Virus record (IMG/VR): IMGVR_UViG_3300032245_000624
DNA: 64,000 nt
Source: a virus
Lineage: Duplodnaviria; Heunggongvirae; Uroviricota; Caudoviricetes
Strand: one strand, 5' to 3'
Shown here piece by piece: positions 37,678-63,463 of the stretch. Every line of letters begins with the position of its first letter. Position 1 is the first letter of the stretch. Under the pieces are notes generated by a model. The model worked only from the letters and a program-made list of their open reading frames with translations, was not told the DNA's origin and made no database searches. The position numbers and the translations under genes are program-made.

Positions 37678-37708
37678 TTGCTTGCTCCTTTTGTTTAACT
37701 TAGCCTAT

Positions 37709-37737
37709 AGTATAGCAAAATGGGTAGATTTGGTCAA
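37709..37737 (-). promoter_or_regulatory. Phage promoter cassette copy A: TTGACC-17-TATACT followed by the conserved leader ATAGGCTAAGTTAAACAAAAGGAG
   Basis: Plus ggtcaa at 37732-37737 and agtata at 37709-37714. The cassette is repeated near-identically at 46.06, 50.82, 53.65 and 53.98 kb. Confidence 0.7.
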
Positions 37738-37751
37738 CCGTTTTTTCCATA

Positions 37752-37780
37752 AAAAAACCCTTGATTTACAAGGGTTTTTT
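37752..37780 (-). terminator. Rho-independent terminator (AACCCUUGUAAAUCAAGGGUU plus UUUUUUA)
   Basis: Hairpin plus U-tract immediately upstream of promoter A. Confidence 0.65.
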
Positions 37781-37800
37781 GTAGTACTTTTGTTAACAGA

Positions 37801-37875
37801 TTAACGATTTGCAATGTACATGGTGATTTCAAAACCATAACGCATTTCTGTTGCACTTGGTGTGGTCCATTTCAT
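37801..37875 (-). CDS. pqqA: PqqA-like peptide (24 aa: MKWTTPSATEMRYGFEITMYIANR)
   Basis: RBS AAGGAG 7 nt upstream of the ATG. Matches the PqqA signature W-x-x-P...R-x-G-F-E-[VI]-T-x-Y, including the Glu and Tyr that form PQQ. Close to Pseudomonas-type PqqA. Confidence 0.5.
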   Translation of the reverse strand: MKWTTPSATEMRYGFEITMYIANR

Positions 37876-37984
37876 AATTTTCTCCTTGAATGATTAAATG
37901 ACATACTTAGGTGATGTCCTAGTATGTATCTCTATTGTACAGGCAAAAATGGTCAAATCATATCCAGGAAATCATGATTGTTGG

Positions 37985-38001
37985 CTAGTGAAATTCACTA
38001 G
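37985..38001 (-). promoter_or_regulatory. Perfect palindrome CTAGTGAA-A-TTCACTAG, upstream of a TTGACC -35-like box (37951-37956) ahead of the pqqA-like ORF
   Basis: 17 nt palindrome seen in the sequence. The loop is too small for an RNA hairpin, so it looks like an operator. Confidence 0.4.
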
Positions 38002-38003
38002 GC

Positions 38004-38201
38004 CTATTGTTCAGATCTGCCACTGGTGCAACTGTCGTTCCAAAGGCCCTGGGCTTGCTTCTTGTACTCGTAGAGCTCAAGTTCATTCTTGTACTCGTCT
38101 TCGGTCAGGCCATGCCATCCACAGCAGTAGCCTGTGGGACTGCGACCACAACCACATCGTCCAATGTCACTGGAGTTTTCTTTTACTCGCACCTGCATCA
38201 T
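38004..38201 (-). CDS. Small Cys-rich protein (65 aa, GRCGCGRSPTGYCCGWHG)
   Basis: ATGA overlap with the upstream gene at 38198-38201. Confidence 0.45.
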   Translation of the reverse strand: MMQVRVKENSSDIGRCGCGRSPTGYCCGWHGLTEDEYKNELELYEYKKQAQGLWNDSCTSGRSEQ

Positions 38202-38599
38202 TTTCCTTTCGTGTCTTGGGCTATTTTTTTATAGCCCGACCAGCTGGGATGAACCTTGTCTGGTTGTAATCCAGTAATGGGTACCACGGTGTCATTGTGC
38301 TGTTCAGCAACTATCTTGACCATGTTTTGAATGTCGGGCTTGATAGCTGGCATGATCCAGTACACTCGATCTGCTTGTACACGAGCTCGTAGTTGTTGCA
38401 ACTCCCATATGGTTCGTACACCAGCATGATCGTTTGATCCAAGGCTAATGATAACTGTTTGACCAGTTAGTTCTTTATTGGCATATCGTTGATTCCAATC
38501 GCGACTGTTGATACCGCCTTTGCTATAACTCACACACTCAGGACGAACCTGTGCTGTGCCTACTGCTATTGAATCTCCAAGTATCAAACAATCTAACAT
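38198..38599 (-). CDS. SGNH/GDSL-family hydrolase
   Basis: Blocks LGDSIAVG, GSND and DKVHPS. Confidence 0.55.
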   Translation of the reverse strand: MLDCLILGDSIAVGTAQVRPECVSYSKGGINSRDWNQRYANKELTGQTVIISLGSNDHAGVRTIWELQQLRARVQADRVYWIMPAIKPDIQNMVKIVAEQHNDTVVPITGLQPDKVHPSWSGYKKIAQDTKGK

Positions 38600-38610
38600 T
38601 TTGTCTCCGA

Positions 38611-39117
38611 TTAACTGTTAAGAACTTTGGCAACACTATTCATAACACTGGCAATGCGGCCAATGTCACGAAGCTGTTCCACAGTGTAGCCTTCTGTCTT
38701 CAATGTTTCGTAATGTGCTTTCACACAGAAGTGACATTTGCCCACAATACTTGCGGCAAGACTAAAAGCTTCAAAGTTTGACTTTGTAGTTCCGCCATGA
38801 CTTGCGATTGCGTTCATACGCAGACCTGCTGGCAGGCCTTTAAGAGCAGGATCATCAGCCATTTCAACATAAGGATACCATACATTGTTTTGGGCCATGA
38901 TCGAGGCCGCTGTCATTGCTGACTCTGCATGTACAGGTGCGTCTGCTAGTATGACTGATAGGATTTTACCGTTGCCAGTTGCAGCCAATGACGCTACAGC
39001 ACAACCCATAGCAACATCAGCATCCAATGTACTACGCAAAAGAACAGCATCAAGATTTAACTTGGTATCTTTTGCGTAGTCTGGCAACGCTGATTTAACT
39101 GCGTCGATGAATGCCAT
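38611..39117 (-). CDS. ahpD: AhpD-like carboxymuconolactone decarboxylase-family protein (alkylhydroperoxidase)
   Basis: CHFCVKAH CxxC-H signature. Adjacent to ahpC. Confidence 0.65.
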   Translation of the reverse strand: MAFIDAVKSALPDYAKDTKLNLDAVLLRSTLDADVAMGCAVASLAATGNGKILSVILADAPVHAESAMTAASIMAQNNVWYPYVEMADDPALKGLPAGLRMNAIASHGGTTKSNFEAFSLAASIVGKCHFCVKAHYETLKTEGYTVEQLRDIGRIASVMNSVAKVLNS

Positions 39118-39656
39118 TACAATGTCTCCCCGCCTACTGTACGGTTACAAGCACATAGTTCGCCAGTTTGTAGCGCATCCAACACACGAAGTGTTTCTTC
39201 TGGGCTACGACCAACGTTCAAGTTGTTCACAGTTACGTGCTGGATAACGTTGTCTGGATCAACGATGAATGTTGCGCGAAGTGCCGCACCTGCTGGAGCA
39301 TAGAATACGCCCAACTGTTCAATCAAACTCAACTCACCACGCTGTGTGTCAGCAAACTGGTTGTGTGTGATCTTCTTCAAGTCAGCGTGGGCATTTTGCC
39401 AGCTAACCTTACAGAACTCATTGTCAGTGCTACCTGTGAGCAATACTGCGTCACGGTCGGCAAAGTCGCCTGTTAGTTTGTCGTAGGCTACAATTTCTGT
39501 AGGGCAAACAAATGTAAAGTCCTTTGGATAGTAAACAATTACTTTCCATTTACCAGCAAAGCTCTCATCTGTGATTTCAAAGAAAGCATCTTCTGGTTGT
39601 CCAGGCTTGACACCTGTGACTGCGAATTTTTCTAATTTGTGTCCAACGGTTTTCAT
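39117..39656 (-). CDS. ahpC: Peroxiredoxin (AhpC/TSA family)
   Basis: Peroxidatic motif FTFVCPTEI. 179 aa. Confidence 0.85.
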   Translation of the reverse strand: MKTVGHKLEKFAVTGVKPGQPEDAFFEITDESFAGKWKVIVYYPKDFTFVCPTEIVAYDKLTGDFADRDAVLLTGSTDNEFCKVSWQNAHADLKKITHNQFADTQRGELSLIEQLGVFYAPAGAALRATFIVDPDNVIQHVTVNNLNVGRSPEETLRVLDALQTGELCACNRTVGGETL

Positions 39657-39689
39657 ATGATTCTCCTTAAAGTAAAAAATTTATTGTAA

Positions 39690-39719
39690 ATTATAACGCA
39701 AACGCACTGATATAATCAA
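39690..39719 (-). promoter_or_regulatory. Putative promoter TTGATT-18-TATAAT for ahpC-ahpD
   Basis: Plus aatcaa at 39714-39719 and attata at 39690-39695. Confidence 0.45.
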
Positions 39720-39734
39720 ATGTTTTGGTTAAAT

Positions 39735-40793: not shown

Positions 40794-41348
40794 TTAGAAG
40801 CGGTGAATATAACCAACCTTGGTGATGTTCTGCTCGCTATCGCCACGTTGACGATCGTAACCTAGGTACACAGTACTGGTCTTGTTGATATCGTAACCAA
40901 TCTTGGCACGCCAGGTACGTGTGGTATCGTTTTGACTATCTTTGAAAGCGTCTTGGAAACGATAGCCTAGTCCTGCGCTAAAGCCTAGACCCAGTCCAGC
41001 TGTAACACCTGGCTCAACTGAGTAGTAGCTATAACCTGCGCTACCACTAGAGTAATTCTCGCCGACTGCTACACGAGTGTAAACGCCAACTGGTCCAACT
41101 GGCACTGCGCCAGTAACACCTGCTTCATAGCGAGTTGCTAATGCGTTGGTGCCTTCTGTGCGATAGTTCTTGACCACGATATCGCCAGCAAAGCTGTTGT
41201 TGATTGCTTGCTTGACGCCTAGCTCGTAAACACGTTGATCAGCGGTACCATTAACGCCATTGGCGTTTTGACCTTCTAATCGTACTTCAGCGGCTGACAC
41301 GCCCAATGCGGCCATGGCTAGTAGAGTTGCTAATGCAAATTTTTTCAT
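40794..41348 (-). CDS. Outer-membrane beta-barrel protein (Ail/Lom/OmpX-like)
   Basis: Signal peptide. Alternating amphipathic strands. C-terminal YIHRF ends in Phe. Confidence 0.6.
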   Translation of the reverse strand: MKKFALATLLAMAALGVSAAEVRLEGQNANGVNGTADQRVYELGVKQAINNSFAGDIVVKNYRTEGTNALATRYEAGVTGAVPVGPVGVYTRVAVGENYSSGSAGYSYYSVEPGVTAGLGLGFSAGLGYRFQDAFKDSQNDTTRTWRAKIGYDINKTSTVYLGYDRQRGDSEQNITKVGYIHRF

Positions 41349-44265: not shown

Positions 44266-44294
44266 TGCAAAAAGAAACCCGCCGAAGCGGGTTC
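44266..44294 (-). terminator. Rho-independent terminator ending the tmRNA precursor (CCCGCUUCGGCGGG plus UUUCUUUUUG)
   Basis: GC hairpin plus U-tract. Confidence 0.65.
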
Positions 44295-44547
44295 TGGTTG
44301 TTTAGGTTACAAGGTAAGTCCTACCCCGTGGTGTTCGGTTTTTAAGCGAACGCTGCCTCAGTTGCAGCCACTTTGCTTCCGCCGAAACGGAAACCTTTAG
44401 CGACTGTTACTTTGACACCAGTTTGTGTATTTGCTTTTGCATTTACGTTTTTTGCGTCTACGGCCGGGAATCCCCAACCCTACGGTTTCTGCCTTACCGT
44501 GCTGTCCACTTATCTACTCTTTGCCCTGTCGAAACCAGGTCACCCCC
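44270..44547 (-). ncRNA. ssrA: tmRNA coding piece (5' acceptor strand GGGGGUG, ACCUGGUUUCGACAGGG, tag reading frame)
   Basis: RNA GGGGGUGACCUGGUUUCGACAGGGC resembles the E. coli tmRNA 5' end GGGGCUGAUUCUGGAUUCGACGGG. The tag ORF starts GUAGAC-GCA and ends AAFA-UAA. Confidence 0.7.
44345..44455 (-). other. Putative tmRNA tag reading frame (resume codon GCA at 44455-44453, stop UAA at 44344-44342). It encodes AKNVNAKANTQTGVKVTVAKGFRFGGSKVAATEAAFA
   Basis: Frame chosen by alignment to the E. coli resume context UAGUC-GCA. It is unusually long (37 aa), so the end point is uncertain. Confidence 0.4.
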
Positions 44548-44628
44548 ATCATAAGAAGACATGTATACATATTACAGTTATTAGTGATACTATACAAATA
44601 AACTCATATGCTTTCATAATATCTCCTT

Positions 44629-44694
<66 letters not shown>

Positions 44695-44700
44695 ACTTAC

Positions 44701-44729
44701 AGTATATATTTATTGGCTATCGTCGTCAA
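44701..44729 (-). promoter_or_regulatory. Promoter TTGACG-17-TATACT for the tmRNA precursor
   Basis: Plus cgtcaa at 44724-44729 and agtata at 44701-44706. Confidence 0.5.
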
Positions 44730-44942
44730 GTCTAGGGAAGCCCAAAGTAAATTTTGTCAATGGATCCACCTTCTTCAACATCACAGCGCCTGACGTGGTT
44801 TTGCACACTTGCAAAAGATCACCTTCCTCAAACCGGATCTTCTCTAACGGAAGCTCTTCGTCTAAGATAATGTACTGTCCGTATTCAATGTCAATGATGT
44901 AGTCGAAGTGTTTCATGCAAGTATTTACACACTTGCAAAATT

Positions 44943-44995: not shown

Positions 44996-45325
44996 TTAGG
45001 CAGTTGCTTTGGCCTTGGTAGTAACAGCAGGCTTAGCAGGCGCCTTAACCTTAACACCGGCAACCTTAACAGTTGCGGAACCGTTGTACTTCTCGTCAGC
45101 GGCATCAATTGCCTGCTTGAACTCTGCACGGTTGTAGAGCTCAGAAGTTTTTAAGAACGTAACCAGCTCAGGCTTGGTCATTGCTTGTGGCAGGTCCATG
45201 AGTTCAATCTCAGTGTGACCAGTTTTAGCCAGCACCTTAACACGGGTCATATCATTCGCAAAGCGAACTTTGTATGAACCGGCAAGTTTAGAAACACCAG
45301 CAATTTTAAAAGTTTTATCAGACAT
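44996..45325 (-). CDS. Small protein with a Lys/Ala-rich C-terminal tail (histone H1-like; possible DNA-binding protein)
   Basis: The C-terminus VKAPAKPAVTTKAKATA is low complexity and basic. Confidence 0.5.
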   Translation of the reverse strand: MSDKTFKIAGVSKLAGSYKVRFANDMTRVKVLAKTGHTEIELMDLPQAMTKPELVTFLKTSELYNRAEFKQAIDAADEKYNGSATVKVAGVKVKAPAKPAVTTKAKATA

Positions 45326-45353
45326 ACTAACTCCTGTTTAGATTTAAAAAGTA

Positions 45354-45406
45354 CGGTACACCGTGTACCATACCATTAGTGTACTGCCTTTTTGGAATGG
45401 AGTCAA
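45354..45406 (-). promoter_or_regulatory. Promoter TTGACT-17-TACACT with the perfect palindrome GGTACAC-C-GTGTACC (45354-45368) over the predicted transcription start
   Basis: Plus agtcaa at 45401-45406 and agtgta at 45378-45383. Dyad at +3 to +17. Confidence 0.5.
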
Positions 45407-45576: not shown

Positions 45577-46026
45577 TTAAGCCTCCACAGTTTCAGTTTC
45601 AAGTGCTTCACTCAACAGTACCAAACGGTTCTTGAATATACCGCTTGTGCTACCACAGTACCATTGACCATTTTCCATCACATAGTAGTACTCGCCGAAG
45701 CAGTTTTCTACACGATCCAGAAATTCTTCAAAGGAGTGGTCCACTTGCCATTCAGTGCCTTCTTCATCACGGTCACGGCCGTAAAAGCGACACTGGGTAG
45801 CAATGTCATCCTCGTCATAAGTGAGACGCTCGTTGAAGTCAATCTTCTCGCCAATGTCTTTGCCAACCATGGAGCAGTCGCCCTGTGCAATCAAAAAGTT
45901 GGCTTTGGTGCTGTCGTAGTAACGGTTGAGCACTTTTCCCAGATAGCCTAAATAACCATCGGAATGCACATAAATTGATTTGCAAACATTACCGTGCATT
46001 ACTGCAACACGAGAACGAGTAGACAT
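45577..46026 (-). CDS. Hypothetical protein (149 aa)
   Basis: ORF downstream of promoter cassette copy B. Confidence 0.5.
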   Translation of the reverse strand: MSTRSRVAVMHGNVCKSIYVHSDGYLGYLGKVLNRYYDSTKANFLIAQGDCSMVGKDIGEKIDFNERLTYDEDDIATQCRFYGRDRDEEGTEWQVDHSFEEFLDRVENCFGEYYYVMENGQWYCGSTSGIFKNRLVLLSEALETETVEA

Positions 46027-46058
46027 TGTTGAGCTCCTGTTTGTTTAACTTAGCCTAT

Positions 46059-46087
46059 AGTATAGCAAAATGGGCCATAATGGTCAA
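46059..46087 (-). promoter_or_regulatory. Phage promoter cassette copy B (TTGACC-17-TATACT plus conserved leader)
   Basis: Plus ggtcaa at 46082-46087 and agtata at 46059-46064. Confidence 0.7.
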
Positions 46088-46099
46088 CCGTTTTTTGTC

Positions 46100-46145
46100 A
46101 GAAAAAACCCCTGCAAAACTGTTGATTTTACAAGGGTTTTTTGTT
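46100..46145 (-). terminator. Terminator-like hairpin(s) with a U-tract upstream of promoter B
   Basis: aaaaacccctgcaaaactgttgattttacaagggtttttt. Confidence 0.5.
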
Positions 46146-46174
46146 GCTTTTTTACAACAGTTGCTAAACTGCTG

Positions 46175-48154: not shown

Positions 48155-50315
48155 TCAAGTTGATGTACTGTGCTACTGCCAACGCATTGATGTCGTAGTC
48201 ACGCAAACTGCTCAAGAGTGGATAACGATTACGGATGGCAGTCATTTCACCTGTAATGTTTTGGACAACCGAGTCTACGTCAACTGGTGTTGCATAGTCA
48301 CGGCACAAACGTTCTAAACTGTGTTTCTCAACTTTGACATTTTCGATGCCTCTGAACTGAGTCAAAAACTTCGAGAATGGGCTGTTGCTGTCTACAAGTT
48401 TTACAATATCGCTATTGTAGCGGAAAACTTTATTCACGTCAAGCTGTTTCAGCGCACAATTACGCACAACGGACACATCCAATTTTGCCAAAACTGTGCG
48501 AATGTGATCTTGTACATTGATCCAGTTCTTCTGTGTCTTGATAAACTCGATATCCGATTTACGCACACCGTAGATTGTGATACCATGCAAACCAGGAATG
48601 CCTGACTCAGTAACCATGTCGCTGAACTGACGCAGGTTGTGAATTGAAACGCTGTCAGTGATAACTTCAAAACCTTTGAGTGGCAGGTAGTAGTAGGTTT
48701 CAGTGTCGTCAAAGCTGTCGGCCTTGCCTGCGTCCTTCCACACCAGCTCACGCTCTTTGTGATAGCCACCGTAACCACGACGTTGCAAGCTCATGATACT
48801 AACATTAGCACCCATACCAGTACCGGTGTTCTTGCGTTCTTTTTCAATCAAGTCGCTGGCCAACATGCGTTGGGCCGCAGGCGGTTCACGTAGTTCTGCA
48901 AAGAAGCCCAGCGTGTCCATAGCATGGCCCTTGGTAGCAGGACTTATCACATACACTGTGGTGCTATAACCTGCACCAGGCAATTTGCTACCTTTGCTTT
49001 CTGCATTGCGCCAGTGGTACTTGGCACGGCTCAATGCACCAACTCGGGTATTGTTGGTAATAAAAACATTCTGACCATTGATGTTGAATTCCCACACTTG
49101 TTCAAAGTTGGTGTGAGTCTTGTCGTACACACGGCCGGGCTTGACTTCTGAGCAGGTGGCCGCACTACGACCTTTGTTGAAGGCCAGGATCTCAATGTTA
49201 TAGCGAGAGGCCAAGTCTTTGAGATTGATCTTAAACGGCACTGAGTGCATGTAATTGCCGCGGCTGTTAGGGTCAATCAAATCAAAGCCAGTGTCTTTCA
49301 CATACTTGTGAGCGGCCTGATTCCACAGCATCTCATTGGCTTTCTTCTGCAGGAACTCTACCTTTTCCCAGTCATTGGTGATAGCGCCTGCTTCCATGCC
49401 CAGGTGTACTGCCAACTGTGCATTCAATGCCTCTAGCTTGGCACGAATGGCATTCACAGTCTGTGGAATATAGCTCAAGCCCTCGCGACTTGCTTGGAAG
49501 TCCAACTCGCCAATGTCAAAGTGCATCTCCAAGCCACAGCTCAACAAGTTGGCAAGTTCACCAATTTGGTCTTGGTTAGGCAAGTCAATTGGGTATGCAA
49601 TATTACCCATCACAGCACGACTAGAACGACCACCAGTGTAATGCACACCTGGAATGATGTTCTTGTCCTTGTACTCAACATCACGGAACTTGAACTCACC
49701 GTCACCGCCTGATACCACAGGACGCAGGGCAAAGTAGGTGTACACATGTCGAGCTTCTTCTTCAAACTTGTAGAAGTCGCCACGGCTGTCTACTGCAAAC
49801 TTGACTTCAACACCTGCGGGTTGATCAGTGGGTTCTGAGTGCATGAGCACAATGCTAGGCACGCCTTCGCCGTTGATGAAAGCAGAGTACACTCCACGCA
49901 CACCATCACGGATGGCAGTCACAGTAAAATTGTCTGTGTAACTGAAAGGTGACTTGGAACCCAAGCCCAGGGCACCAATGAACGCATTGGATTCTGTCTT
50001 GGTAGATTCAAAGTAAGTGGTGTAGATGCTTTGCACCTGTTCGTGAGTAAGGCCAGTGCCATAGTCACGGATGCTGAATGTAGGATCAATAGTGTTAGGC
50101 AAGTGTACATCAAACGGTGTTGCCTGCTTGCCTGCGGCAGTATGGCTGTCAACTGCATTGCAAGAAAGCTCGCGGATGATAGCGCGGATCTTGTTTGCGT
50201 ACAAGCCTGAGGAAAGAATGTTAAAGGCCTTAGCAGAATTGCGAATACGGAACTCGCCAATTTCGCCTACGTTAGACAGAACAGCTTCGTGGGCTGGTGC
50301 ATTGTTGATGATCAA
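48138..50315 (-). CDS. rIIA: rIIA-like protein with an N-terminal GHKL ATPase domain
   Basis: 725 aa. YANKIRAIIRELSCNAVDSH...GLGSKSPFSYTD matches the T4 rIIA N-terminus. Confidence 0.85.
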   Translation of the reverse strand: MIINNAPAHEAVLSNVGEIGEFRIRNSAKAFNILSSGLYANKIRAIIRELSCNAVDSHTAAGKQATPFDVHLPNTIDPTFSIRDYGTGLTHEQVQSIYTTYFESTKTESNAFIGALGLGSKSPFSYTDNFTVTAIRDGVRGVYSAFINGEGVPSIVLMHSEPTDQPAGVEVKFAVDSRGDFYKFEEEARHVYTYFALRPVVSGGDGEFKFRDVEYKDKNIIPGVHYTGGRSSRAVMGNIAYPIDLPNQDQIGELANLLSCGLEMHFDIGELDFQASREGLSYIPQTVNAIRAKLEALNAQLAVHLGMEAGAITNDWEKVEFLQKKANEMLWNQAAHKYVKDTGFDLIDPNSRGNYMHSVPFKINLKDLASRYNIEILAFNKGRSAATCSEVKPGRVYDKTHTNFEQVWEFNINGQNVFITNNTRVGALSRAKYHWRNAESKGSKLPGAGYSTTVYVISPATKGHAMDTLGFFAELREPPAAQRMLASDLIEKERKNTGTGMGANVSIMSLQRRGYGGYHKERELVWKDAGKADSFDDTETYYYLPLKGFEVITDSVSIHNLRQFSDMVTESGIPGLHGITIYGVRKSDIEFIKTQKNWINVQDHIRTVLAKLDVSVVRNCALKQLDVNKVFRYNSDIVKLVDSNSPFSKFLTQFRGIENVKVEKHSLERLCRDYATPVDVDSVVQNITGEMTAIRNRYPLLSSLRDYDINALAVAQYINLIDKEA

Positions 50316-50347
50316 TTCTAGCTCCTGTTTTTACTTACTAAGCCACT

Positions 50348-50376
50348 ATTATAGCGGTGTTGAACAAAACGGTCAA
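50348..50376 (-). promoter_or_regulatory. Promoter TTGACC-17-TATAAT for rIIA-rIIB, with AAAACGG/CCGTTTT arms directly flanking the -35
   Basis: Plus ggtcaa at 50371-50376 and attata at 50348-50353. Confidence 0.65.
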
Positions 50377-50382
50377 CCGTTT

Positions 50383-50784
50383 TTACACTTCCTGATTGTA
50401 TTCTTTACGCAACACTTCCAGGCATTGCTCTTTGGTACGTTTGGTCACAACAACCTTGCCGCCAAAGAAGCCCACGTACAGATTGCGGTGCTCCACAAAT
50501 TTTACTTCGCCATCAGCACCGGTATGCTTTTGACGCATAGGAGCCTTAACAACCACTTTTTTGGCCACTGTCTTTTTAACAGCAGGCTTGATGCCCAGCG
50601 GAGTCATACCTGCCAGTGCAGGCACTTGAGGTGTTGCAGGCTTTGCAGGAGGATTGTTGAAGCTGTGCTTCTTGTCGTATTTTGCAATCTGCTCTGGAGT
50701 GAAACCCCAAGTAGCAATCAGTCGCTTGGTTTCAGTGCCAGTGAGTGAATTCCAGTTGATGCAAGAGTCTGTCCAGTTTTTCAT
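50383..50784 (-). CDS. Hypothetical protein (133 aa)
   Basis: ORF after cassette copy C. Confidence 0.5.
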   Translation of the reverse strand: MKNWTDSCINWNSLTGTETKRLIATWGFTPEQIAKYDKKHSFNNPPAKPATPQVPALAGMTPLGIKPAVKKTVAKKVVVKAPMRQKHTGADGEVKFVEHRNLYVGFFGGKVVVTKRTKEQCLEVLRKEYNQEV

Positions 50785-50815
50785 TGCGAGCTCCTTTTTG
50801 TTTAACTTAGCCTAT

Positions 50816-50844
50816 AGTATAGCAAAAACGGGTATTTGGGTCAA
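50816..50844 (-). promoter_or_regulatory. Phage promoter cassette copy C
   Basis: Plus ggtcaa at 50839-50844 and agtata at 50816-50821, with conserved leader and RBS. Confidence 0.7.
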
Positions 50845-50861
50845 CCGTTTTTTTGTTGCTT

Positions 50862-51150
50862 TTATGCAACATTTTGAGCTTGCAAAAACTTTAATACTTT
50901 GGGTTGTATTTTTACAGCAACAGATTGGCTGTTATTTTGCACACGAAATTGCTCAATTTTTGCTTGCACTAGTGCTAGAGTAGTGCTTGGGTGGCAAGGA
51001 AGCTCCGAATAATACAGGGCTTTGTTTACAGGGCACGATTCAAAATTATGGGCACTTATGCGAATAGCAACGGGCGCATTTGAATAGGGAGTTGTTTTAA
51101 TACTAACATTTGCAAAGAGGCGATTGCTTGCTTTTGTAGTAAAATGCACG
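50862..51150 (-). CDS. Hypothetical protein (about 96 aa), probably starting at GTG 51150 rather than the listed ATG 51188, which lies inside the promoter
   Basis: The listed start overlaps the -10 of cassette F. GGAGC lies 5 nt upstream of the GTG. Confidence 0.4.
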
Positions 51151-51178
51151 TTGAGCTCCTTTTTGTTATTGAGCTCAT

Positions 51179-51207
51179 AGTATAGCAAAACGGGTGTTTT
51201 CGGTCAA
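51179..51207 (-). promoter_or_regulatory. Phage promoter cassette copy F (divergent leader)
   Basis: Plus ggtcaa at 51202-51207 and agtata at 51179-51184. Confidence 0.6.
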
Positions 51208-51210
51208 CCG

Positions 51211-51456
51211 TTAGAGATACCCGCGGTCGAAATTTGCGTGGATAGCATACCACTGGAAAAATATGGGTTCATATTCTGCCCAATTGCATACCGCCCATTC
51301 TTCTTCGCGTTCTACTTCCCACGGCCTGAGGCTGTTGCTCAGCAGGGCCATCACGAGCTTTTTGTTGTGCCGTGTGGCCTGGCCCTTGGCCGAGCTCTCC
51401 TTGCCATACATGCCAATCAATTGGCCTGATCCTTTTTTATAAACTACAAATCTCAT
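51211..51456 (-). CDS. Hypothetical protein (81 aa)
   Basis: ORF. Confidence 0.45.
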   Translation of the reverse strand: MRFVVYKKGSGQLIGMYGKESSAKGQATRHNKKLVMALLSNSLRPWEVEREEEWAVCNWAEYEPIFFQWYAIHANFDRGYL

Positions 51457-53334: not shown

Positions 53335-53615
53335 TATGCAGACTCCAACATGTTAGCAGGCACCTTCCACAGACCCTGCTGAGTGGCCACTGTGACATAC
53401 TTGATAGCAACCTTGCTCACGGTACCAGTCATTGTCACACCACGCTTGGTGCTGTGGAACTTGACCGCATCACCTTTGGTGAACGCACGGATCTTGGTTG
53501 CACGAAGCTGGGCACGAGCATAGTTCACGGCATCGCTGATGCTATTCAGTTGCTCGTTGGTAAAGTTGCTGAACATGATTGAAGTGTTAACTTCTTGAAT
53601 GGTTGCGTATGACAT
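53334..53615 (-). CDS. Hypothetical protein (93 aa)
   Basis: ORF after cassette copy D. Confidence 0.5.
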   Translation of the reverse strand: MSYATIQEVNTSIMFSNFTNEQLNSISDAVNYARAQLRATKIRAFTKGDAVKFHSTKRGVTMTGTVSKVAIKYVTVATQQGLWKVPANMLESA

Positions 53616-53645
53616 GATGTGCTCCTTTTGTTTAACTTAGCCTAT

Positions 53646-53674
53646 AGTATAGCAAAACGGGAATTTCTGGTCAA
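53646..53674 (-). promoter_or_regulatory. Phage promoter cassette copy D
   Basis: Plus ggtcaa at 53669-53674 and agtata at 53646-53651. Confidence 0.7.
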
Positions 53675-53680
53675 CCGTTT

Positions 53681-53947
53681 TTATTCGGAAAATTCGTACA
53701 TGAATTGGACCGTGCTAGGATCCAACTTGATCAGATCACGGGCGGCGCCAGTCAGCGCACGATAGCGAGCTTGTACTTGACTACGAGGCAATTCACCATC
53801 ACAGCTCAAGTTCTCTGGGCTGAGTGCGGCATCAATGCTCTGTGCCACACGTTTGCGACCCTGGGCAGTTTTAACTTCAAACTGCTCGCCCTTGAAGATT
53901 GCGTTCCATTTGTTCTGTTGTTCAATGTATGCTTGAAGTGCTTTCAT
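53681..53947 (-). CDS. Hypothetical protein (88 aa)
   Basis: ORF after cassette copy E. Confidence 0.5.
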   Translation of the reverse strand: MKALQAYIEQQNKWNAIFKGEQFEVKTAQGRKRVAQSIDAALSPENLSCDGELPRSQVQARYRALTGAARDLIKLDPSTVQFMYEFSE

Positions 53948-53977
53948 TGCTGGCTCCTTTTGTTTAACTTAGCCTCT

Positions 53978-54006
53978 AGTATAGCAAAACGGGTAGATTT
54001 GGTCAA
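53978..54006 (-). promoter_or_regulatory. Phage promoter cassette copy E
   Basis: Plus ggtcaa at 54001-54006 and agtata at 53978-53983. Confidence 0.7.
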
Positions 54007-54032
54007 CCGTTTTGTTTGTTGCGAAAAACCCA

Positions 54033-54065
54033 CAAAAAACCCCTGTAAAAACAAGGGTTTAAAAG
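54033..54065 (-). terminator. Rho-independent terminator upstream of promoter E
   Basis: aaaaacccctgtaaaaacaagggttt hairpin plus U-tract. Confidence 0.55.
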
Positions 54066-54088
54066 TAGTACTTTTGTTAACAAAAATG

Positions 54089-55531
54089 CTATTTTTTAGA
54101 TCTGCCGGATTTCATGTTAGCACACCAGTGGTACATTTTTGCCCGTTCTCCACTGGCACGTTTGGCCTTGGCTCTGAGTGATGTTACGGATCCGTCACAG
54201 CTGGCGCCTGCACGGCTTACTCTGCCCGGACGACTCTTGCCTTTGACCTTGCCGTCATGGAAGTTTTCCCACACACGCTCTTCTTCACCGCGGTGCTTGT
54301 CCCAGAAGCCTTTGCCTGCATCTGTTTGATCCCAACTACGATGTATCTCATAGCCCAGTTTCTTAACAAAGTCGTACATGGTACGAGCAATGCCTTGCCC
54401 TTGGTACTTGTCATCCACACGCAGATCCTGTGGGTCTAGTTCTTTACCATCACCGATGTTGAATTCAACGTAGCCTAGTACTTTGTTACCCCAGTCGTTT
54501 AGTGCTTCAACCTTGAGCTTGTATGATTCTTTGCTTACTCGTATGTTCAGCCCTTCAAACTCAACCATCTTGGATTCTGCCAAGCCTCGTCCTAGTCTGC
54601 TTAGTTCGTATATAACTATGTCACCATTGTCGGCACGGAAGGCTCGATATCCCCAAGCACGAGCATAACGCTGTACCAGTCTGTCGTACAGTTTAGCACG
54701 GCTTTCTGGATTGAAGTGTTCAACATTGTCTGCGTCCATGTCCACTTGTTTGCTGGCCGAGAAACTTAGTCGTTGTGGTTTGTATTTTTTGATGTATTTT
54801 TGTATAGCATCTAGTACTGTAGCAAAAATACGCTGTGCATCGCCCTCGCCTGTGACTTCTTGACTGTTGTTTCTATGGAACTCAACTTGCGTGACTTCTT
54901 CGCCTTCGTCACCATACTCCTGATTAAACATGATGTTGAGGTATGTGCCGTCTGGTAATTTTGCGTTTACATCAACGTCACCGTAGTCTGATTTTTCCCA
55001 CTTGCCCTTGTAAGGGTTGTCAAAGGCTTCTGCTAGTTCTTCATCATCTAAAAATGTATCTGCAAATGATTTGCACAGATCACGTATGCTACCATTTTCA
55101 GTTTCCATGATGTTGAAGTCACGATGTTCTTCTTCTTGAGTAGGATCAATATAACCACAGTAGACTTTCTTTACGCCCACTTGGTCAATTAGTTCTGTAC
55201 AGTCAATACCAAAACGTTCGCTCATGTGTTCACTGCATGGACTACATGTTGTGATAATAATACTGCCCTCAGGTATATCGCCATGTGCCTCTTGGTACTT
55301 TTCAATAGCCACACGCTCGGCATGCTTGCGAGTGTCTGTGGCATCATCAAATGTGTTTAGTCCTGCTATAATGCGATTGTCAGGGTCTACCACTGCCGCG
55401 GCCACCATGCCATAAAGTCCTTCACGAGGATCTTTCATGCCTTGCACAACCATGTGACACAACCGAACTAGAATTCGATCTAGTTTTTTATAGTTGTGTA
55501 TCTCTGTGTTGCTGATGTCGCTGTAGCGCAT
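54089..55531 (-). CDS. Fusion protein: N-terminal cytidine/dCMP-deaminase-like zinc domain and C-terminal GNAT acetyltransferase-like domain
   Basis: HAERVAIEKY...TTCSPCSEHM (H-A-E ... PCxxC). C-terminal DKYQGQGIARTMYDFVKKLGY (GNAT motif A). Confidence 0.65.
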   Translation of the reverse strand: MRYSDISNTEIHNYKKLDRILVRLCHMVVQGMKDPREGLYGMVAAAVVDPDNRIIAGLNTFDDATDTRKHAERVAIEKYQEAHGDIPEGSIIITTCSPCSEHMSERFGIDCTELIDQVGVKKVYCGYIDPTQEEEHRDFNIMETENGSIRDLCKSFADTFLDDEELAEAFDNPYKGKWEKSDYGDVDVNAKLPDGTYLNIMFNQEYGDEGEEVTQVEFHRNNSQEVTGEGDAQRIFATVLDAIQKYIKKYKPQRLSFSASKQVDMDADNVEHFNPESRAKLYDRLVQRYARAWGYRAFRADNGDIVIYELSRLGRGLAESKMVEFEGLNIRVSKESYKLKVEALNDWGNKVLGYVEFNIGDGKELDPQDLRVDDKYQGQGIARTMYDFVKKLGYEIHRSWDQTDAGKGFWDKHRGEEERVWENFHDGKVKGKSRPGRVSRAGASCDGSVTSLRAKAKRASGERAKMYHWCANMKSGRSKK

Positions 55532-55532
55532 A

Positions 55533-57458
55533 TTAGTGGAACATTAAAAACTGTCTGCTCACGTCCAAGCGACTTGCGCCTAGATCGCCGTGGCCTGCAG
55601 GGAACACTACCACGTTCCACTTGGGCTTAGGACCTTCTGGAATACGCAACATCTGATCATAAGTGATAATAGTGTCTGGATCAATCTTGTATGCAGAAGC
55701 CAACTTTTGCTTGAACTGATTCCAGTCGTCTTCGCTCTTGACCTGTGTGCGACCTTTTTCATCTTTTACATACTTGCCTTTGGCATCTGTAACAAACAAT
55801 TCACGGAACATGTCTTTAGGCAATGTAACTGCATCTTTAACATGCTTGCCAGCACCACGTTGGAATTCAACTTTTTTGACTTCGCGGTTCTGAGAACCAC
55901 TGGAGAACTGTCCAACTACATTAGGCGGAGCACCTGCATCGGCAGCAAGGTCACCCATCTTGGTATAGAAGTAGAACTTGGCGCCTGGGTTGTTGCGAGC
56001 AACATTCATGGCTAGGTCATAATAGTCCTTGCTGAAGAAATCGCCTGCATCGTGAATACGAACTAGTAGTTTAATGCCTGCTTTGTCTGTGCGTTTTTGT
56101 GCTGCCTTGACCTCACGATCAAACATTGCCATATAGCCTTCTGGATCATTGACCAAGAAGTTCAGTGCCTGTGCCGCGCTCATTGAGCTGGCAGGGAACA
56201 TACGATATCCGCCCTTGCGAGCATAACAGAATATTTGGCATTCGCCTGCGCCCGGGCAGGTCTTGATTTCCACAAAGTCGCCTGTTTCTTCATCCACCAC
56301 AATGCCTGAAAGTGCTGGTAGCGTTAAATCGTACGTCATCGCACCTTCTTCTTTGCTCTTGGCCATTTTAGCGTTGGTGCCAAGAATTTGACTAGGGCGA
56401 GTTGTGATCTGTCTTGCTAGGTCATCCAGGTCCCACTTGTTGTTTGGGTCGTCGCTTTGTATGATTGCCTTGACGTTACTACCATGGATAATAGGCTTGA
56501 ATTTGTCTGATTTGGTCTTTGTGTCTGTTTGGATACGGTCAACATAGCTGTGTAGTTCGTCACGGCTCCACTTCTGTTGTGGTGCATCAAGTTTTAATGC
56601 TTCATCAACTTCTAGGCTTTCATTGGGCACACAGTTACGTACCTGTCCGCCATTCTTGCCCTTTTTAGTGCCTTCTGCGTGTTTGCCTGGCCAGCACTTG
56701 GTATAACCGTTGCTGTCCTTTTGTCCTTTTTTGATTTCATTGAGATTGCCGTGTGATTGGCACATGCCACAATCCGGGCAAGTCATTTCCATCTCAATGC
56801 TTTTGTTGTGTTTTTTCTTGCCAGCACAATGTGCCTTTTGTGAGAATCCTTTTGGATGTGAGCAGTTGATACTTTTCTTGTACTTCTGACTCCACTCTTC
56901 TGCTATTGGCTCGTCATCCACTGTGCCAATATAGTGATGGTCATGTACTTTGTAACCCTTGCGGCGATAGTGTGCAATGGCTTGGTTAATGGCTGCTTCA
57001 CGATTAGAAACGTTTTGTGTGATACGAATTGATTTCTGAATAGTTTCTTTGCGCTTGCTGACCATTGGGTGGTTTGGATCTGTTACTGTCACACCAATGC
57101 GGTGTGTAACCGGCCCCACAGACTCGTCGACACCAACTCCAAATGCTTCTGGTGGGTTTTCCTTTAGCATACGTTCCACTTGGTTAACCCATCCACTAAC
57201 ATCGCTGGAGCCAATTTCTTCTACATCGCCAACCCAGTCAGCAACATCATCAATTGCGGCCATAACTGCTTCTGGACCATACTTGAGTAGGTCATGACGC
57301 TGGCCCATGATGCGACGAGTAATAGCACTGGCTACTGGACTGGGTTCTCCAAATCCTTCAGCAACAGGATCTTTGCTTCCAGACTGTTCAATATCTAGAG
57401 GCTGGACTGCAAATCCGCCTAGCGTCTTGCCTTCTTTAATTAGTTCGGTGTATCTCAT
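55533..57458 (-). CDS. Large hypothetical protein (641 aa) with Cys/His clusters
   Basis: Long ORF with no family recognised by eye. Confidence 0.55.
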   Translation of the reverse strand: MRYTELIKEGKTLGGFAVQPLDIEQSGSKDPVAEGFGEPSPVASAITRRIMGQRHDLLKYGPEAVMAAIDDVADWVGDVEEIGSSDVSGWVNQVERMLKENPPEAFGVGVDESVGPVTHRIGVTVTDPNHPMVSKRKETIQKSIRITQNVSNREAAINQAIAHYRRKGYKVHDHHYIGTVDDEPIAEEWSQKYKKSINCSHPKGFSQKAHCAGKKKHNKSIEMEMTCPDCGMCQSHGNLNEIKKGQKDSNGYTKCWPGKHAEGTKKGKNGGQVRNCVPNESLEVDEALKLDAPQQKWSRDELHSYVDRIQTDTKTKSDKFKPIIHGSNVKAIIQSDDPNNKWDLDDLARQITTRPSQILGTNAKMAKSKEEGAMTYDLTLPALSGIVVDEETGDFVEIKTCPGAGECQIFCYARKGGYRMFPASSMSAAQALNFLVNDPEGYMAMFDREVKAAQKRTDKAGIKLLVRIHDAGDFFSKDYYDLAMNVARNNPGAKFYFYTKMGDLAADAGAPPNVVGQFSSGSQNREVKKVEFQRGAGKHVKDAVTLPKDMFRELFVTDAKGKYVKDEKGRTQVKSEDDWNQFKQKLASAYKIDPDTIITYDQMLRIPEGPKPKWNVVVFPAGHGDLGASRLDVSRQFLMFH

Positions 57459-59841: not shown

Positions 59842-59870
59842 ATTATAGACAACTATAGAGCATTTGTCAA
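59842..59870 (-). promoter_or_regulatory. Consensus sigma70 promoter TTGACA-17-TATAAT upstream of clpP
   Basis: Plus tgtcaa at 59865-59870 and attata at 59842-59847. Confidence 0.65.
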
Positions 59871-61223: not shown

Positions 61224-61787
61224 TTAGAATTTGTCAACCACTTGCCACTCTTGATTTCGAACCAAACAAGCGATACCTTGCCATTGGTACAATTGAGTGC
61301 CTTGTGCATCCGTTTCAATAAACCAGCGACATGTGGTATTTTTATAACGGAATGGCTCCGGGTGCTGTGGGTCAATTTGGACTTCACTTTCTTTAATGAT
61401 GTCACCAATTTTCACAGCGGCTCGAACTTTTGGAATGGGTTGATCAGTACACACCATGCTTTGGTCCATGGTAATTTTGGATCCACCCACTGAATCTAGT
61501 AAGTGTGCTTTACCGGCATCCATTGCGCCTGCACAGATCTGTTCTTCACCTAGGCCTCTATCACCTTCATTTACCGCTTCTCCGGTATGCCATTGGTTTT
61601 TGATCTGAGCACGGAATGTTACCACGCACCTTAGTTGATTTCTGGGTAGAGGAACAACACTGCGCTCTACGTCAACAATGCGTTGAATTTTAACAGGCAG
61701 TTGTTTGATTGCCGCACTGCGGCTATAACATTCTGCATGAGCAGAACCAACAGCAAACAGTGCCAGTAAGAGAGCAGTTTTTTTCAT
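61224..61787 (-). CDS. Periplasmic or secreted protein (187 aa) with a signal peptide
   Basis: MKKTALLLALFAVGSAHA. Confidence 0.55.
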   Translation of the reverse strand: MKKTALLLALFAVGSAHAECYSRSAAIKQLPVKIQRIVDVERSVVPLPRNQLRCVVTFRAQIKNQWHTGEAVNEGDRGLGEEQICAGAMDAGKAHLLDSVGGSKITMDQSMVCTDQPIPKVRAAVKIGDIIKESEVQIDPQHPEPFRYKNTTCRWFIETDAQGTQLYQWQGIACLVRNQEWQVVDKF

Positions 61788-62104
61788 CGACAGTACTTGA
61801 GTAGATAATCAATTTTGCCACGGATTATCGCAGTGTTCACACCACGATAGCTTTTGTAACGTTCTGCATAGGTACCATCTGCCATGGTAAGCAAGGTACC
61901 ACTAACACCTGTCATCGCCAGTGCATTGGTCCAGCGGTCCTGTCTGTCAGGCAGTTGCATTTGTAAAAATTCAACCTGTTCCCACTTGCGGTTGCAATCC
62001 AACTTGTAGTTGTCTAGCTCTTCCACTGTGAGATGATTGGTTGTACCCCAGGCCATTGCTAGACCTGGAACTATCAACGATAGACTTGCAATGTAGGATC
62101 GCAT
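61784..62104 (-). CDS. Exported protein (start at the internal Met, MRSYIASLSLIVPGLAMA)
   Basis: Signal peptide begins at residue 7 of the listed ORF 61784..62122. Confidence 0.45.
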   Translation of the reverse strand: MRSYIASLSLIVPGLAMAWGTTNHLTVEELDNYKLDCNRKWEQVEFLQMQLPDRQDRWTNALAMTGVSGTLLTMADGTYAERYKSYRGVNTAIIRGKIDYLLKYCR

Positions 62105-62334
62105 TGTGACCTCAATGTCCAAATTAGATTTTTAGCACGAGCTTGATATTCACGATCGCCGTCGTTGCCGGGCAATCGCATTTGTCTTTCTAAGTATGCA
62201 ATCTGCAATCTTGCATTGCCGCAGTCAGGGCGCATACGTGAAAGATCCTGCATGGGCAAACGTGATTCTGTTGCACAGCCTACTAGTGTAACCAACAGGC
62301 CTGCGAGAGCAAAGACTTTCATGTCAGTCCTCAA
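62074..62334 (-). CDS. Small lipoprotein (86 aa)
   Basis: Lipobox LVGCAT. Confidence 0.5.
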   Translation of the reverse strand: MRTDMKVFALAGLLVTLVGCATESRLPMQDLSRMRPDCGNARLQIAYLERQMRLPGNDGDREYQARAKNLIWTLRSQCDPTLQVYR

Positions 62335-62488
62335 GTTTGTTAGGATGTTTGGGTTTACGCACGTAGGTGCCTCGTTTGTTCTTTACCGTTTTTGGACGAA
62401 ATGGTGAATTTTCGGCAAACAGCACAAAGTGAGCACGAGTACGAGCACGTGGTACTTCAAATCGAATTGTAGTGTTCTTATTCATCAT
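62324..62488 (-). CDS. Small highly basic protein (about 54 aa, MMNKNTTIRFEV...KNKRGTYVRKPKHPNK), probably leaderless
   Basis: The listed start at 62524 lies inside the -35 of the promoter. The first ATG after the -10 is at about 62488, about 7 nt downstream. Confidence 0.4.
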   Translation of the reverse strand: MMNKNTTIRFEVPRARTRAHFVLFAENSPFRPKTVKNKRGTYVRKPKHPNKLED

Positions 62489-62495
62489 AGTCCAA

Positions 62496-62524
62496 ATTAT
62501 ACATGTAAATGGATTATTGGTCAA
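62496..62524 (-). promoter_or_regulatory. Promoter TTGACC-17-TATAAT
   Basis: Plus ggtcaa at 62519-62524 and attata at 62496-62501. Confidence 0.6.
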
Positions 62525-62715
62525 CCGTGTTTGTTTACAGTGACGTTGCTTTTAAACAAACCACCAATCACAACCACTGCCGCCCAGGTTTCCCAAGTGT
62601 AAGGAATAGCCAAGGTTGGGAACAGAGTGTTCATGGACCAAATGGTCAACAACGGGCCTAAAACAATCAGCGCCAATACAAATACCGCAACAGAAACAAT
62701 CTTAATCATTACCAA
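62521..62715 (-). CDS. Small membrane protein (64 aa)
   Basis: Two hydrophobic helices. Confidence 0.45.
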   Translation of the reverse strand: MVMIKIVSVAVFVLALIVLGPLLTIWSMNTLFPTLAIPYTWETWAAVVVIGGLFKSNVTVNKHG

Positions 62716-62912
62716 CTCCTATAAGTTCTTGGGTGGCCGTACAAATTAGGGTTCACCCCATTGTTGTTTTTGTACGACTGGTTGAAACAAACTTCACCGC
62801 CTTGGTCAGCATAGCAACTGCGAGTGCCTGCTAGATCCTGGCTCACTAGAGCCGGGCGTTGACTGGCGCACCCAGTGAGTGCAACCAGCACGAGAACAAT
62901 TAAACTTTTCAT
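62709..62912 (-). CDS. Small lipoprotein (internal start MKSLIVLVLVALTGCAS)
   Basis: Lipobox. The listed longer ORF to 63047 uses a GTG start and overlaps the upstream gene. Confidence 0.45.
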   Translation of the reverse strand: MKSLIVLVLVALTGCASQRPALVSQDLAGTRSCYADQGGEVCFNQSYKNNNGVNPNLYGHPRTYRSW

Positions 62913-63328
62913 TACCAGCGCCTCAATCCACCACCATGATAGGTAGGATGGCTGGGTTGCTGATAAATTATCACTGGCGGAGGTGGTGCATACACTATCT
63001 GTGGCACGGCTTGATAGCAACCTGTACAACAAACAGTATTCCCCCACTGGTCAATGTAACACCCACGTGGTTGGGGCTGTACATACACCTCACGACGTTG
63101 TTCATATGTGTAGCCAAAAGGACGACGAGCTTCTGCTTGACGCTCACCCATCTCATATCCGATCACTGCACCAATTGCAGTGGTTGCGGCTTTACCGTTA
63201 CCTTGTCCAAACTGATTACCAATTGCGGCACCAATCACCGCACCCATCACTGGTTCTATCTCCACAGCCTGAGCAACAGGCGCGGTTAATGCGACCAGCA
63301 TTGACAGGGCTAACAGTTTACGTTTCAT
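62912..63328 (-). CDS. Glycine-zipper (GxxxG array) exported protein
   Basis: Signal peptide plus GAVIGAAIGNQFGQGNG...IGAVIGY. RBS AAAGGAG. Confidence 0.55.
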   Translation of the reverse strand: MKRKLLALSMLVALTAPVAQAVEIEPVMGAVIGAAIGNQFGQGNGKAATTAIGAVIGYEMGERQAEARRPFGYTYEQRREVYVQPQPRGCYIDQWGNTVCCTGCYQAVPQIVYAPPPPVIIYQQPSHPTYHGGGLRRW

Positions 63329-63381
63329 TTTGCACTCCTTTAAGGCAATTTACAGTTCTATTTACTTAACTGTTACCCACA

Positions 63382-63410
63382 GTATATACAAAACGGGCAT
63401 TTGTGTCAAC
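63382..63410 (-). promoter_or_regulatory. Promoter TTGACA-17-TATACT
   Basis: Plus tgtcaa at 63405-63410 and agtata at 63382-63387. Confidence 0.6.
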
Positions 63411-63412
63411 CG

Positions 63413-63442
63413 TAAAAAACGGGCAAAAAGTGCCCGTTTTTC
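63413..63442 (-). terminator. Rho-independent terminator (ACGGGCACUUUUUGCCCGU plus UUUUUUA)
   Basis: Hairpin plus U-tract. Confidence 0.65.
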
Positions 63443-63463
63443 AAGAGGTTAGCAGTTACTAAC

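Follow-up and report, generated by a model that had tools for sequence, protein, structure and literature searches.

Repeated promoter and leader cassettes in an uncultured aquatic phage resemble the promoter-early stem-loops of T4-type phages

The window analysed here is a stretch of 64,000 nucleotides (nt) from IMG/VR record IMGVR_UViG_3300032245_000624, a virus of the Caudoviricetes. It carries a short repeated element in which a sigma-70-like promoter, a leader, a Shine-Dalgarno (SD) sequence and a start codon follow each other directly in front of an open reading frame (ORF). We read these elements as early-gene expression cassettes of the type known as promoter-early stem-loops (PeSLs), carried by a phage of the T4 superfamily, and put the probability of this reading at about 0.75. 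Because it matches the known PeSL cassettes, the repeat is real but largely ordinary.

Copies of the cassette in the window

The pattern TTGACC-N17-TATACT matches six times in the window, on the minus strand only, against 0.02 matches expected by chance, and none of 100 shuffles reaches six. These strict copies span 37709-37737, 46059-46087, 50816-50844, 51179-51207, 53646-53674 and 53978-54006; the second coordinate of each is the start of its -35 box and is used below to name the copy. An independent repeat finder returned the same six copies as a 67-nt family, and also a 48-nt family of eight copies that adds 50337-50384 and 62485-62532. An earlier note on this DNA, the original prediction, had claimed at least five near-identical copies, in agreement with this count.

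A scan of the window with a profile built from the wider cassette family recovers seven members at E<=1e-8, all on the minus strand between 37.7 and 54.0 kb: the six strict copies and the rIIA promoter (50376, E 9e-10). All other sites in the window have E>=0.007. The structural region (1-18,500) holds no significant match, just as the note had stated for 0-18.5 kb, and no antisense copy of the leader exists in the window, every match being minus-sense. Among the looser copies that had also been proposed, 50376 is a true diverged member and 51207 a strict copy, but the remainder are generic sigma-70-like promoters. Eight such sites (63409, 62524, 59870, 45406, 44729, 41422, 26122 and 21027) have only the promoter hexamers in common with the cassette, with unrelated leaders and E-values of 0.007 or worse in the profile scan. 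The seven members and their parts are:

37675..37790, minus strand: cassette 1, driving a 127-aa ORF (LPD29 domain); terminator hairpin 37751-37780; A-tract and 5' arm AAAACGG 37738-37744; -35 TTGACC 37732-37737; mismatched 3' arm CCATTTT 37717-37723; TG 37716-37717; -10 TATACT 37709-37714; leader 37684-37708; ATG 37675-37677.
46024..46150, minus strand: cassette 2, driving a 149-aa ORF widely conserved among relatives; long terminator hairpin about 46102-46142; -35 46082-46087; -10 46059-46064; leader with a 1-nt insertion; ATG 46024-46026.
50313..50384, minus strand: diverged rIIA cassette; palindrome AAAACGG-TTGA-CCGTTTT centred on the -35 (50371-50376); -10 TATAAT 50348-50353; leader AGTGGCTTAGTAAGTAAAAACAGGAGC; TTG start at 50315.
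50782..50870, minus strand: cassette 3, driving a 133-aa ORF; GTTGC/GCAAC hairpin 50855-50870, no T-run; perfect 8-bp dyad AAAAACGG/CCGTTTTT; -35 50839-50844; -10 50816-50821; ATG at 50784.
51147..51213, minus strand: cassette 4; stop codon of the upstream ORF (51211-51213) abutting CGG-TTGACC; -35 51202-51207; -10 51179-51184; variant leader ATGAGCTCAATAACAAAAAGGAGC; GTG start at 51149.
53613..53683, minus strand: cassette 5, occupying the entire 65-nt gap between two ORFs; perfect 7-bp dyad; -35 53669-53674; -10 53646-53651; exact leader 53621-53645; ATG at 53615.
53945..54079, minus strand: cassette 6; terminator hairpin about 54034-54060; perfect 8-bp dyad CAAAACGG/CCGTTTTG; -35 54001-54006; -10 53978-53983; ATG at 53947.

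In the strict cassettes each hexamer matches the sigma-70 consensus at five of six positions, with a 17-bp spacer (10-11 of 12 positions across sites), and all six have an extended -10 (TGn, with TG one base 5' of the -10 box), giving the form TTGACC-N17-TGcTATACT. An A-tract lies at about -44 to -39, with A4-7 directly 5' of CGG-TTGACC in 5/6 copies. Cassette 4 adjoins the stop codon of the ORF upstream of it, and at 53681-53683 an upstream TAA stop lies inside the A-tract itself. Every copy terminates, behind GGAG, at a start codon 29-32 nt 3' of the -10 box and sits directly 5' of an ORF; most of the ORFs that flank cassettes have no family match. Together with a strong SD these features bear out the description of the repeats as cassettes of sigma-70 promoter, leader and ribosome-binding site. 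Cassettes 6 and 1 also have in common their otherwise variable spacer AAATCTAC and the upstream sequence AAAAGTACTAC.

Exact copies of the 25-nt leader ATAGGCTAAGTTAAACAAAAGGAGC stand at 37684-37708 and 53621-53645, and a copy with one mismatch at 53953-53977, while the leaders of 46087 and 50844 carry a 1-nt insertion 5' of the SD. That the A-rich leader is fully conserved, as had been claimed, is thus right for two copies and nearly so for three, but not for 51207, where it has diverged. All seven members have an AAGGAG or CAGGAG SD 4-6 nt 5' of the start codon, with 4-6 variable nt between GGAGC and the start. The start codon is ATG in five copies, GTG in 51207 and TTG in rIIA.

A hairpin with a T-run and a stem of 10-18 bp precedes three of the six strict copies (37737, 46087 and 54006). 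The claim of an intrinsic terminator before each copy fails for the other three: the small hairpin of 50844 is followed by A's rather than T's, and the cassettes of 53674 and 51207 span the whole 61-65 nt that separate the stop codon upstream from the next start.

The -35 box is embraced by the inverted repeat AAAACGG/CCGTTTT, which is perfect (7-8 bp, arms 14 nt apart) in 54006, 53674 and 50844. It is also perfect at 50376, with arms 4 nt apart, so that 7-8 bp are paired in four of the seven members. For the others the claim that the dyad flanks the -35 in most copies is only partly right: it is 5 bp in 51207, and in 37737 and 46087 a C.A mismatch (CCCATTTT) interrupts it.

The cassette and its phage in IMG/VR

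Exact-pattern scans of IMG/VR gathered 218 loci. Promoter and leader together occur in 82 IMG/VR loci (about 72 contigs), as 133 unique instances, which were partly collected by the leader pattern, so that the apparent conservation of the leader is inflated. At least one protein is common with the window in 68 of the 83 cassette-bearing sources (the 82 loci and the window). Flanking genes are 65-83% identical in DNA, against 85-100% for the cassettes. Conservation across the family, at 1-2 bits per position, covers the GG at -2 and -1, TTGAC(A/C), TG-n-TATACT and the leader as far as GGAGC, with about 0 bits in the 17-bp spacer and in the flank upstream.

A TTGAC promoter is retained 5' of the orthologues of cassette-driven genes in 40/42, 33/40 and 31/39 relatives, and a gene that has no promoter in the window has none in 30/30 relatives. 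This retention argues for working promoters under selection. Some indels among relatives are bounded by cassettes. Locus L001 lacks exactly 50384-51212, that is two units of cassette and ORF between two promoters, and L023 and L074 skip 54082-55533. Further, the same early genes stand in differing orders among relatives, each behind a cassette.

In the relatives there is a second leader class, ACACTTACACAC...AGGAGC, which is linked to TATAAT in 59/68 cases, while the window-type leader is linked to TATACT in 96/108. In the second class (L191, L134, L181, L115, L189, L206 and others) TATAAT is followed by a CA-rich leader (T/A)ACACTTACACACACAAAGGAGC. Such cassettes often lie in the same contigs as those of the window class, 5' of orthologues of the same genes. 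Across the family the leader is predicted to be unstructured, with no folding excess over shuffles (z about 0) and a mean minimum free energy of about -2 kcal/mol.

Outside this group the cassette was not found. The leader has no exact match in 185,579 bacterial genomes, and the leader string gave no match in a literature search. Neither the cassette nor a close cultured phage came up among 50,697 phage records when 10 kb were searched by megablast and the 72-nt cassette by sensitive blastn; the only match was a transfer-messenger RNA (tmRNA) fragment in an Alcaligenes phage. In Rfam the only gathering-level matches in the window are the tmRNA models, and near the cassettes all matches are at chance level. 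A glutamine riboswitch was looked for in the window and not found.

As judged from its gene content, the window looks like the early 'hyperplastic' region of an uncultured aquatic myovirus of the T4 superfamily. Every gene is on the minus strand, and the ORFs between 19 and 64 kb are mostly small and without a family match. Among the genes of the window are rIIA and rIIB, side by side, and those for an ATP-dependent ligase, an AAA ATPase and very large virion proteins, one of these proteins being 43% identical to a virion protein of the T4-like cyanophages S-CAM3 and S-CAM1. A two-piece tmRNA is present as well. The closest rIIA proteins are those of T4-like phages, at <=45% identity. Related contigs, among them IMGVR_UViG_3300013004_000026, 3300013005_003552 and 3300027804_000039, measure 144-191 kb.

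Known systems and alternative readings

PeSLs have been described in the T4-type phages RB49/phi1, PST/T4 and nt-1/KVP40 (Arbiol et al. 2010, PMC2839356; Comeau et al. 2014, PMC4122927). Each is an intergenic cassette of about 100 bp in which the stop codon of the gene upstream lies within AT-rich sequence and a strong sigma-70-like promoter is combined with a stem-loop, placed 5' of the -35 and -10 boxes, between them or overlapping either; the 3' end holds an SD and a start codon, and copies cluster among ORFans in hyperplastic regions (PMC2839356; PMC4122927). Stems in nt-1/KVP40 have the form A3-4G3-loop-C3T3-4. The published stems were terminators in reporters, and the cassettes were recombination points that shuffle gene modules (PMC2839356; PMC4122927).

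Every sequence-level feature by which PeSLs are recognised is found in the window: the sigma-70 promoter is close to consensus and has a 17-bp spacer, a stem-loop is present as well as an SD followed by a start codon, an upstream stop lies in AT-rich sequence, and many copies sit among small ORFans. The arms A4-CGG...CCG-T4 come close to the nt-1 stems, in which an A-run with a G-rich part faces a C-rich part with a T-run, and indels bounded by cassettes are seen as examples. There are also differences. The carrier is an uncultured aquatic T4 relative outside the described phage pairs, promoter and terminator activity of its cassettes is predicted from sequence, and the -35 stem of its clade is A/T-rich with 3 G-C pairs and often imperfect. 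In addition, the segment from the -10 box to the SD is invariant across about 72 contigs, and in relatives it falls into two classes tied to TATACT or TATAAT. The invariance of the leader and the existence of a second class are the sole feature that goes beyond the published PeSL description.

Other known systems are less similar. The early promoters of T4 combine an A-rich upstream region, a -35 box and an extended consensus with a TGn-type -10, and are among the strongest E. coli promoters. Like the cassettes they form a repeated, strong sigma-70 class with conserved positions outside the hexamers, and they serve host take-over genes including rIIA/rIIB; however, their -35 is of GTTTAC type, in place of TTGACC/TTGACA, and the fixed leader attached to the promoter is particular to the cassettes. 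Start-associated sequences in cluster K mycobacteriophages are short conserved motifs repeated directly 5' of many start codons. They are not known to be attached to a sigma-70 promoter and belong to temperate actinophages, so this is a resemblance only. In the OM43 phage Melnitz and in pelagimyophages a permuted tmRNA lies directly 3' of a predicted sigma-70 early promoter (PMC9004378). The window, probably from an aquatic T4-like myovirus as well, has the same arrangement (44701-44729 and 44273-44743), but no repeated promoter-leader cassette is described in that paper.

In the mechanism that we propose, host RNA polymerase with sigma-70 would start at GG-TTGACC, the 17-bp spacer and TGn-TATACT, as consensus quality and conservation suggest, and the A-tract resembles a proximal UP subsite. 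The transcript would begin a few bases 3' of TATACT and carry an unstructured, A-rich 5' untranslated region (UTR) of about 25 nt with an AAGGAG SD 5-8 nt 5' of the start codon, by which the first small gene of each module would presumably be made strongly and early. Read-through between modules would be limited by the GC-rich upstream terminator (in half of the copies), by the weaker A4-CGG...CCG-T4 stem with the -35 in its loop, or by both. By analogy with the tested PeSLs the stem-loops may insulate modules in this way, although this is doubtful for the weak A/T-rich stem. The near-identical repeats of 65-130 nt would also give homology for recombination, by which modules of promoter and gene could be moved.

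Several observations weigh against this picture. What the sequences show is the anatomy and number of the cassettes, their place 5' of ORFs, their conservation in about 72 related contigs, an excess of predicted structure around the -35 and an unstructured leader; promoter activity, start site, termination and the role in recombination are inferred from these. When rearrangement at cassettes is examined globally, adjacency is kept at 5/33 junctions with a cassette and 47/170 without, which is not significant (Fisher p=0.19). Membership of the T4 family is argued from few genes, and no major capsid, gp55 or DNA polymerase gene is found among the window ORFs scanned. The stems that embrace the -35 have folding energies of -2.8 to -8.6 kcal/mol as RNA, with loops of 13-14 nt, and only one of eight (54006, z -3.6) clearly beats shuffles; such a stem, with only 3 G-C pairs, would terminate poorly. 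An attempt to prove a hairpin by covariation failed in the window clade: the arms do not covary, native and permuted-partner stems being equally long. Finally, a leader with 22 invariant nt exceeds what an SD and A-richness need, and something further may act on it.

The dyad itself can be understood in more than one way. In the TTGACC clade, to which the window belongs, conservation of both arms contrasts with free variation of the 8 nt between, and the arms may be either a weak PeSL-type stem or two independent promoter elements that are complementary. The latter is somewhat unlikely in our judgement. AAAACGG and CCGTTTT would then each strengthen the promoter and pair by chance only, the A-tract with GG/CGG extending the -35 and the T-tract leading into the extended -10. 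The conservation of the GG 5' of TTGAC and of the TG 5' of TATACT, which holds family-wide regardless of pairing, fits such a view, as do the weak RNA folding and the equal length of native and permuted stems. So does the finding that in the clade the mismatched CCATTTT outnumbers CCGTTTT (about 13 versus 9 of 24) with no compensating AAAATGG, and that copies without the A-tract arm (L207, L101 and L127) retain the T-tract arm. On the other hand, at 50376 and in L023, L045 and L001 the CCGTTTT stands directly 3' of the -35, which keeps the complementarity and not the position relative to the -10. Predicted structure around the -35 is further in excess across the whole family: positions -14 to +22 fold more stably than shuffled sequence (z about -1.1 on average, with z<-2 in 24-26%). 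The stems have unrelated sequences and differing centres, for example TAACCCA/TGGGTTA, GTCCAAA/TTTGGAC and the 10-bp stem AAACTAGGGG/CCCCTAGTTT of L135. By these predicted folds about one quarter of the promoters share a recurring structural theme, a stem that encloses the -35, and not a fixed sequence site.

A theme without fixed sequence argues against a dedicated operator. The original prediction had suggested a site for a phage-encoded regulator, and in its most concrete form, an operator for a dimeric protein that shuts early transcription, we find this very unlikely. The geometry would suit such a site, with arms of 7-8 bp placed 21 bp (or 11 bp) centre to centre, about two helical turns (or one), and overlapping the -35, and the conservation of both arms around a free centre in the clade is also in its favour. 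The window moreover encodes two proteins that might act on transcription. One, at 27429-27725 (minus strand), is a 98-aa winged-helix protein (Pfam HTH_39, E 7e-5) with its own TTGCTT-N17-TATACT promoter, 51-69% conserved in 21 related loci, and a candidate transcription regulator of the phage group. The other, at 31388-31591 (minus strand), is a 67-aa ORF whose N-terminus matches the SutA RNA-polymerase-binding domain (E 1e-7 when scanned alone; 27 bits in the concatenated scan, below the cut-off of 29.3), with an acidic C-terminal tail and homologues in two related loci; judging from this match, the phage may use its product to modulate host RNA polymerase. However, the arms hold about 0 bits across the family and do not covary in the clade, their spacing varies (4 or 14 nt), and the dyad is broken in two of the six window copies and in most clade relatives. 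The winged-helix protein, too, is conserved in phages with TTGACA-type cassettes that lack these arms.

The invariant leader (ATA-GGCTAAGTTAAAC-A4-GGAGC) could itself be regulatory, either as a DNA operator just 3' of the start site or as an RNA target of a phage or host factor (a translational repressor, a GGAG-cutting nuclease like T4 RegB or a ribosome-recruiting enhancer). A shared translational enhancer, as the original prediction had suggested for the leader, may exist; what is observed is an invariant leader with no predicted structure. A regulatory role of the leader is unlikely, but it would account for 1.1-2.0 bits per position over the 133 instances, next to a spacer with about 0 bits, and for the two discrete classes, each tied to its own -10 sequence; absence from the bacterial genomes shows that the leader was not copied from a host gene. 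Part of the apparent conservation comes from collecting instances by the leader pattern, and gene conversion between repeated cassettes could likewise maintain uniformity. Further, no RegA, RegB, AsiA or MotA is among the Pfam and PHROG matches listed for 87 window ORFs, and the leader has no Rfam match. Taken one step further, TATACT with GGCTAAGTTAAAC and TATAAT with ACACTTACACAC could mark two early regulons, each read by a sequence-specific factor. We regard this as distinctly unlikely; the factor could be, for example, the winged-helix protein on DNA just 3' of the start site, or alternatively an RNA-binding protein or nuclease on the 5' UTR.

It is extremely improbable that the cassettes are read by a polymerase or sigma factor of the phage's own in place of host sigma-70. 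The conservation of GG, TG and the transcribed region, all of which lie outside the hexamers, could be taken as a sign of one, but hexamers and 17-bp spacing are a near-perfect sigma-70 consensus, rIIA and other typical early genes stand behind the cassettes, and no polymerase or sigma family is among the matches listed for the window ORFs.

Other features of the window, and meaning of the cassettes

Outside the cassette family the following promoters and RNA gene were recorded:

63381..63443, minus strand: generic promoter TTGACA-N17-TATACT after a strong terminator (63415-63443); leader unrelated.
59842..59870, minus strand: generic promoter TTGACA-N17-TATAAT, 5' of a ClpP-like protease gene.
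45378..45406, minus strand: generic promoter TTGACT-N17-TACACT; 5-bp dyad AATGG/CCATT around the -35; hairpin-containing leader.
44701..44729, minus strand: generic promoter TTGACG-N17-TATACT, driving the phage tmRNA gene and not a protein-coding cassette.
44273-44743, minus strand: two-piece (permuted) tmRNA; Rfam tmRNA_permuted 112 bits, beta_tmRNA 86.5 bits.
26092..26137, minus strand: promoter TTGCAA-N17-TATAAT directly after the stop of ORF 26139-26963.

The 3' half of the 63415-63443 terminator, GCCCGTTTT, recurs in the promoter spacer. At 26122 an 8-bp hairpin with arms of unrelated sequence (ACACAAGG/CCTTGTGT) has the -35 in its loop and ATTTTAT after it, and from its sequence the element is a compact overlap of terminator and promoter. 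The 45406 promoter is retained as a TTGAC promoter in 33/38 orthologues. Its leader (45326-45377, minus strand) contains an 11-bp hairpin with a T-run (GGTATGGTACACGGTGTACCGTACTTTTT) before ORF 44996-45325, a possible attenuator. ARAGORN also finds the permuted tmRNA at 44273-44743, with an unusually long tag, and 52 nt of it match an unannotated region of Alcaligenes phage vB_Af_QDWS595.

In place of the cassette, T4-late-like motifs, (N)ATAAATA or CTAAATA, lie 20-30 nt 5' of four structural-gene starts on the minus strand (18573-18579, 19195-19201, 11760-11766 and 7098-7104). In the window ATAAATA occurs 8 times against 9 expected, each time on the coding strand, and the T4 late promoter TATAAATA matches once against 1.9 expected. 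A MotA-box reading of TTTTGCTATA was rejected by eye: it overlaps the -10 and does not sit at -30, with a distance of only 8 nt to the nearest TAnnnT.

Among the other genes, all on the minus strand, three are related to translation: a homologue of IF-1 (19194-19415; Pfam eIF-1a/IF-1, E 1e-20), a peptide deformylase (23926-24402, E 2e-37) and the tmRNA. The deformylase gene interrupts a tandem array of nine paralogous small ORFs (22135-24813; 60-105 aa) with the C-terminal motif F.F....DA.LF.LKW(L/S/M), whose shared DNA was also caught by the repeat finder (22444, 23251 and 24511). Oxidative-stress genes encode an Fe/Mn superoxide dismutase (18632-19189) and an AhpD-like protein of the CMD family (38611-39117) that adjoins an AhpC/TSA peroxiredoxin (39117-39656). 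An outer-membrane-type protein may be encoded by a 184-aa ORF at 40794-41348, which matches a Gram-negative porin (Porin_4, E 1e-6).

The cassette family opens no new mechanism. If the two-regulon reading of the leader classes were true, there would be a leader-encoded timing code common to a large group of uncultured aquatic T4-like phages. The signature GGTTGAC-N18-TATACT-ATAGGCTAAGTTAAAC can be searched for in metagenomes to find these phages and their early genes, and promoter and leader together could be used as a compact module to express genes strongly in the host, which is probably proteobacterial. In general, the family takes PeSL-type cassettes beyond a few cultured T4-like phages and into a large uncultured aquatic group of about 72 contigs, in which the cassettes mark the genes most likely to be the first to act in host take-over.

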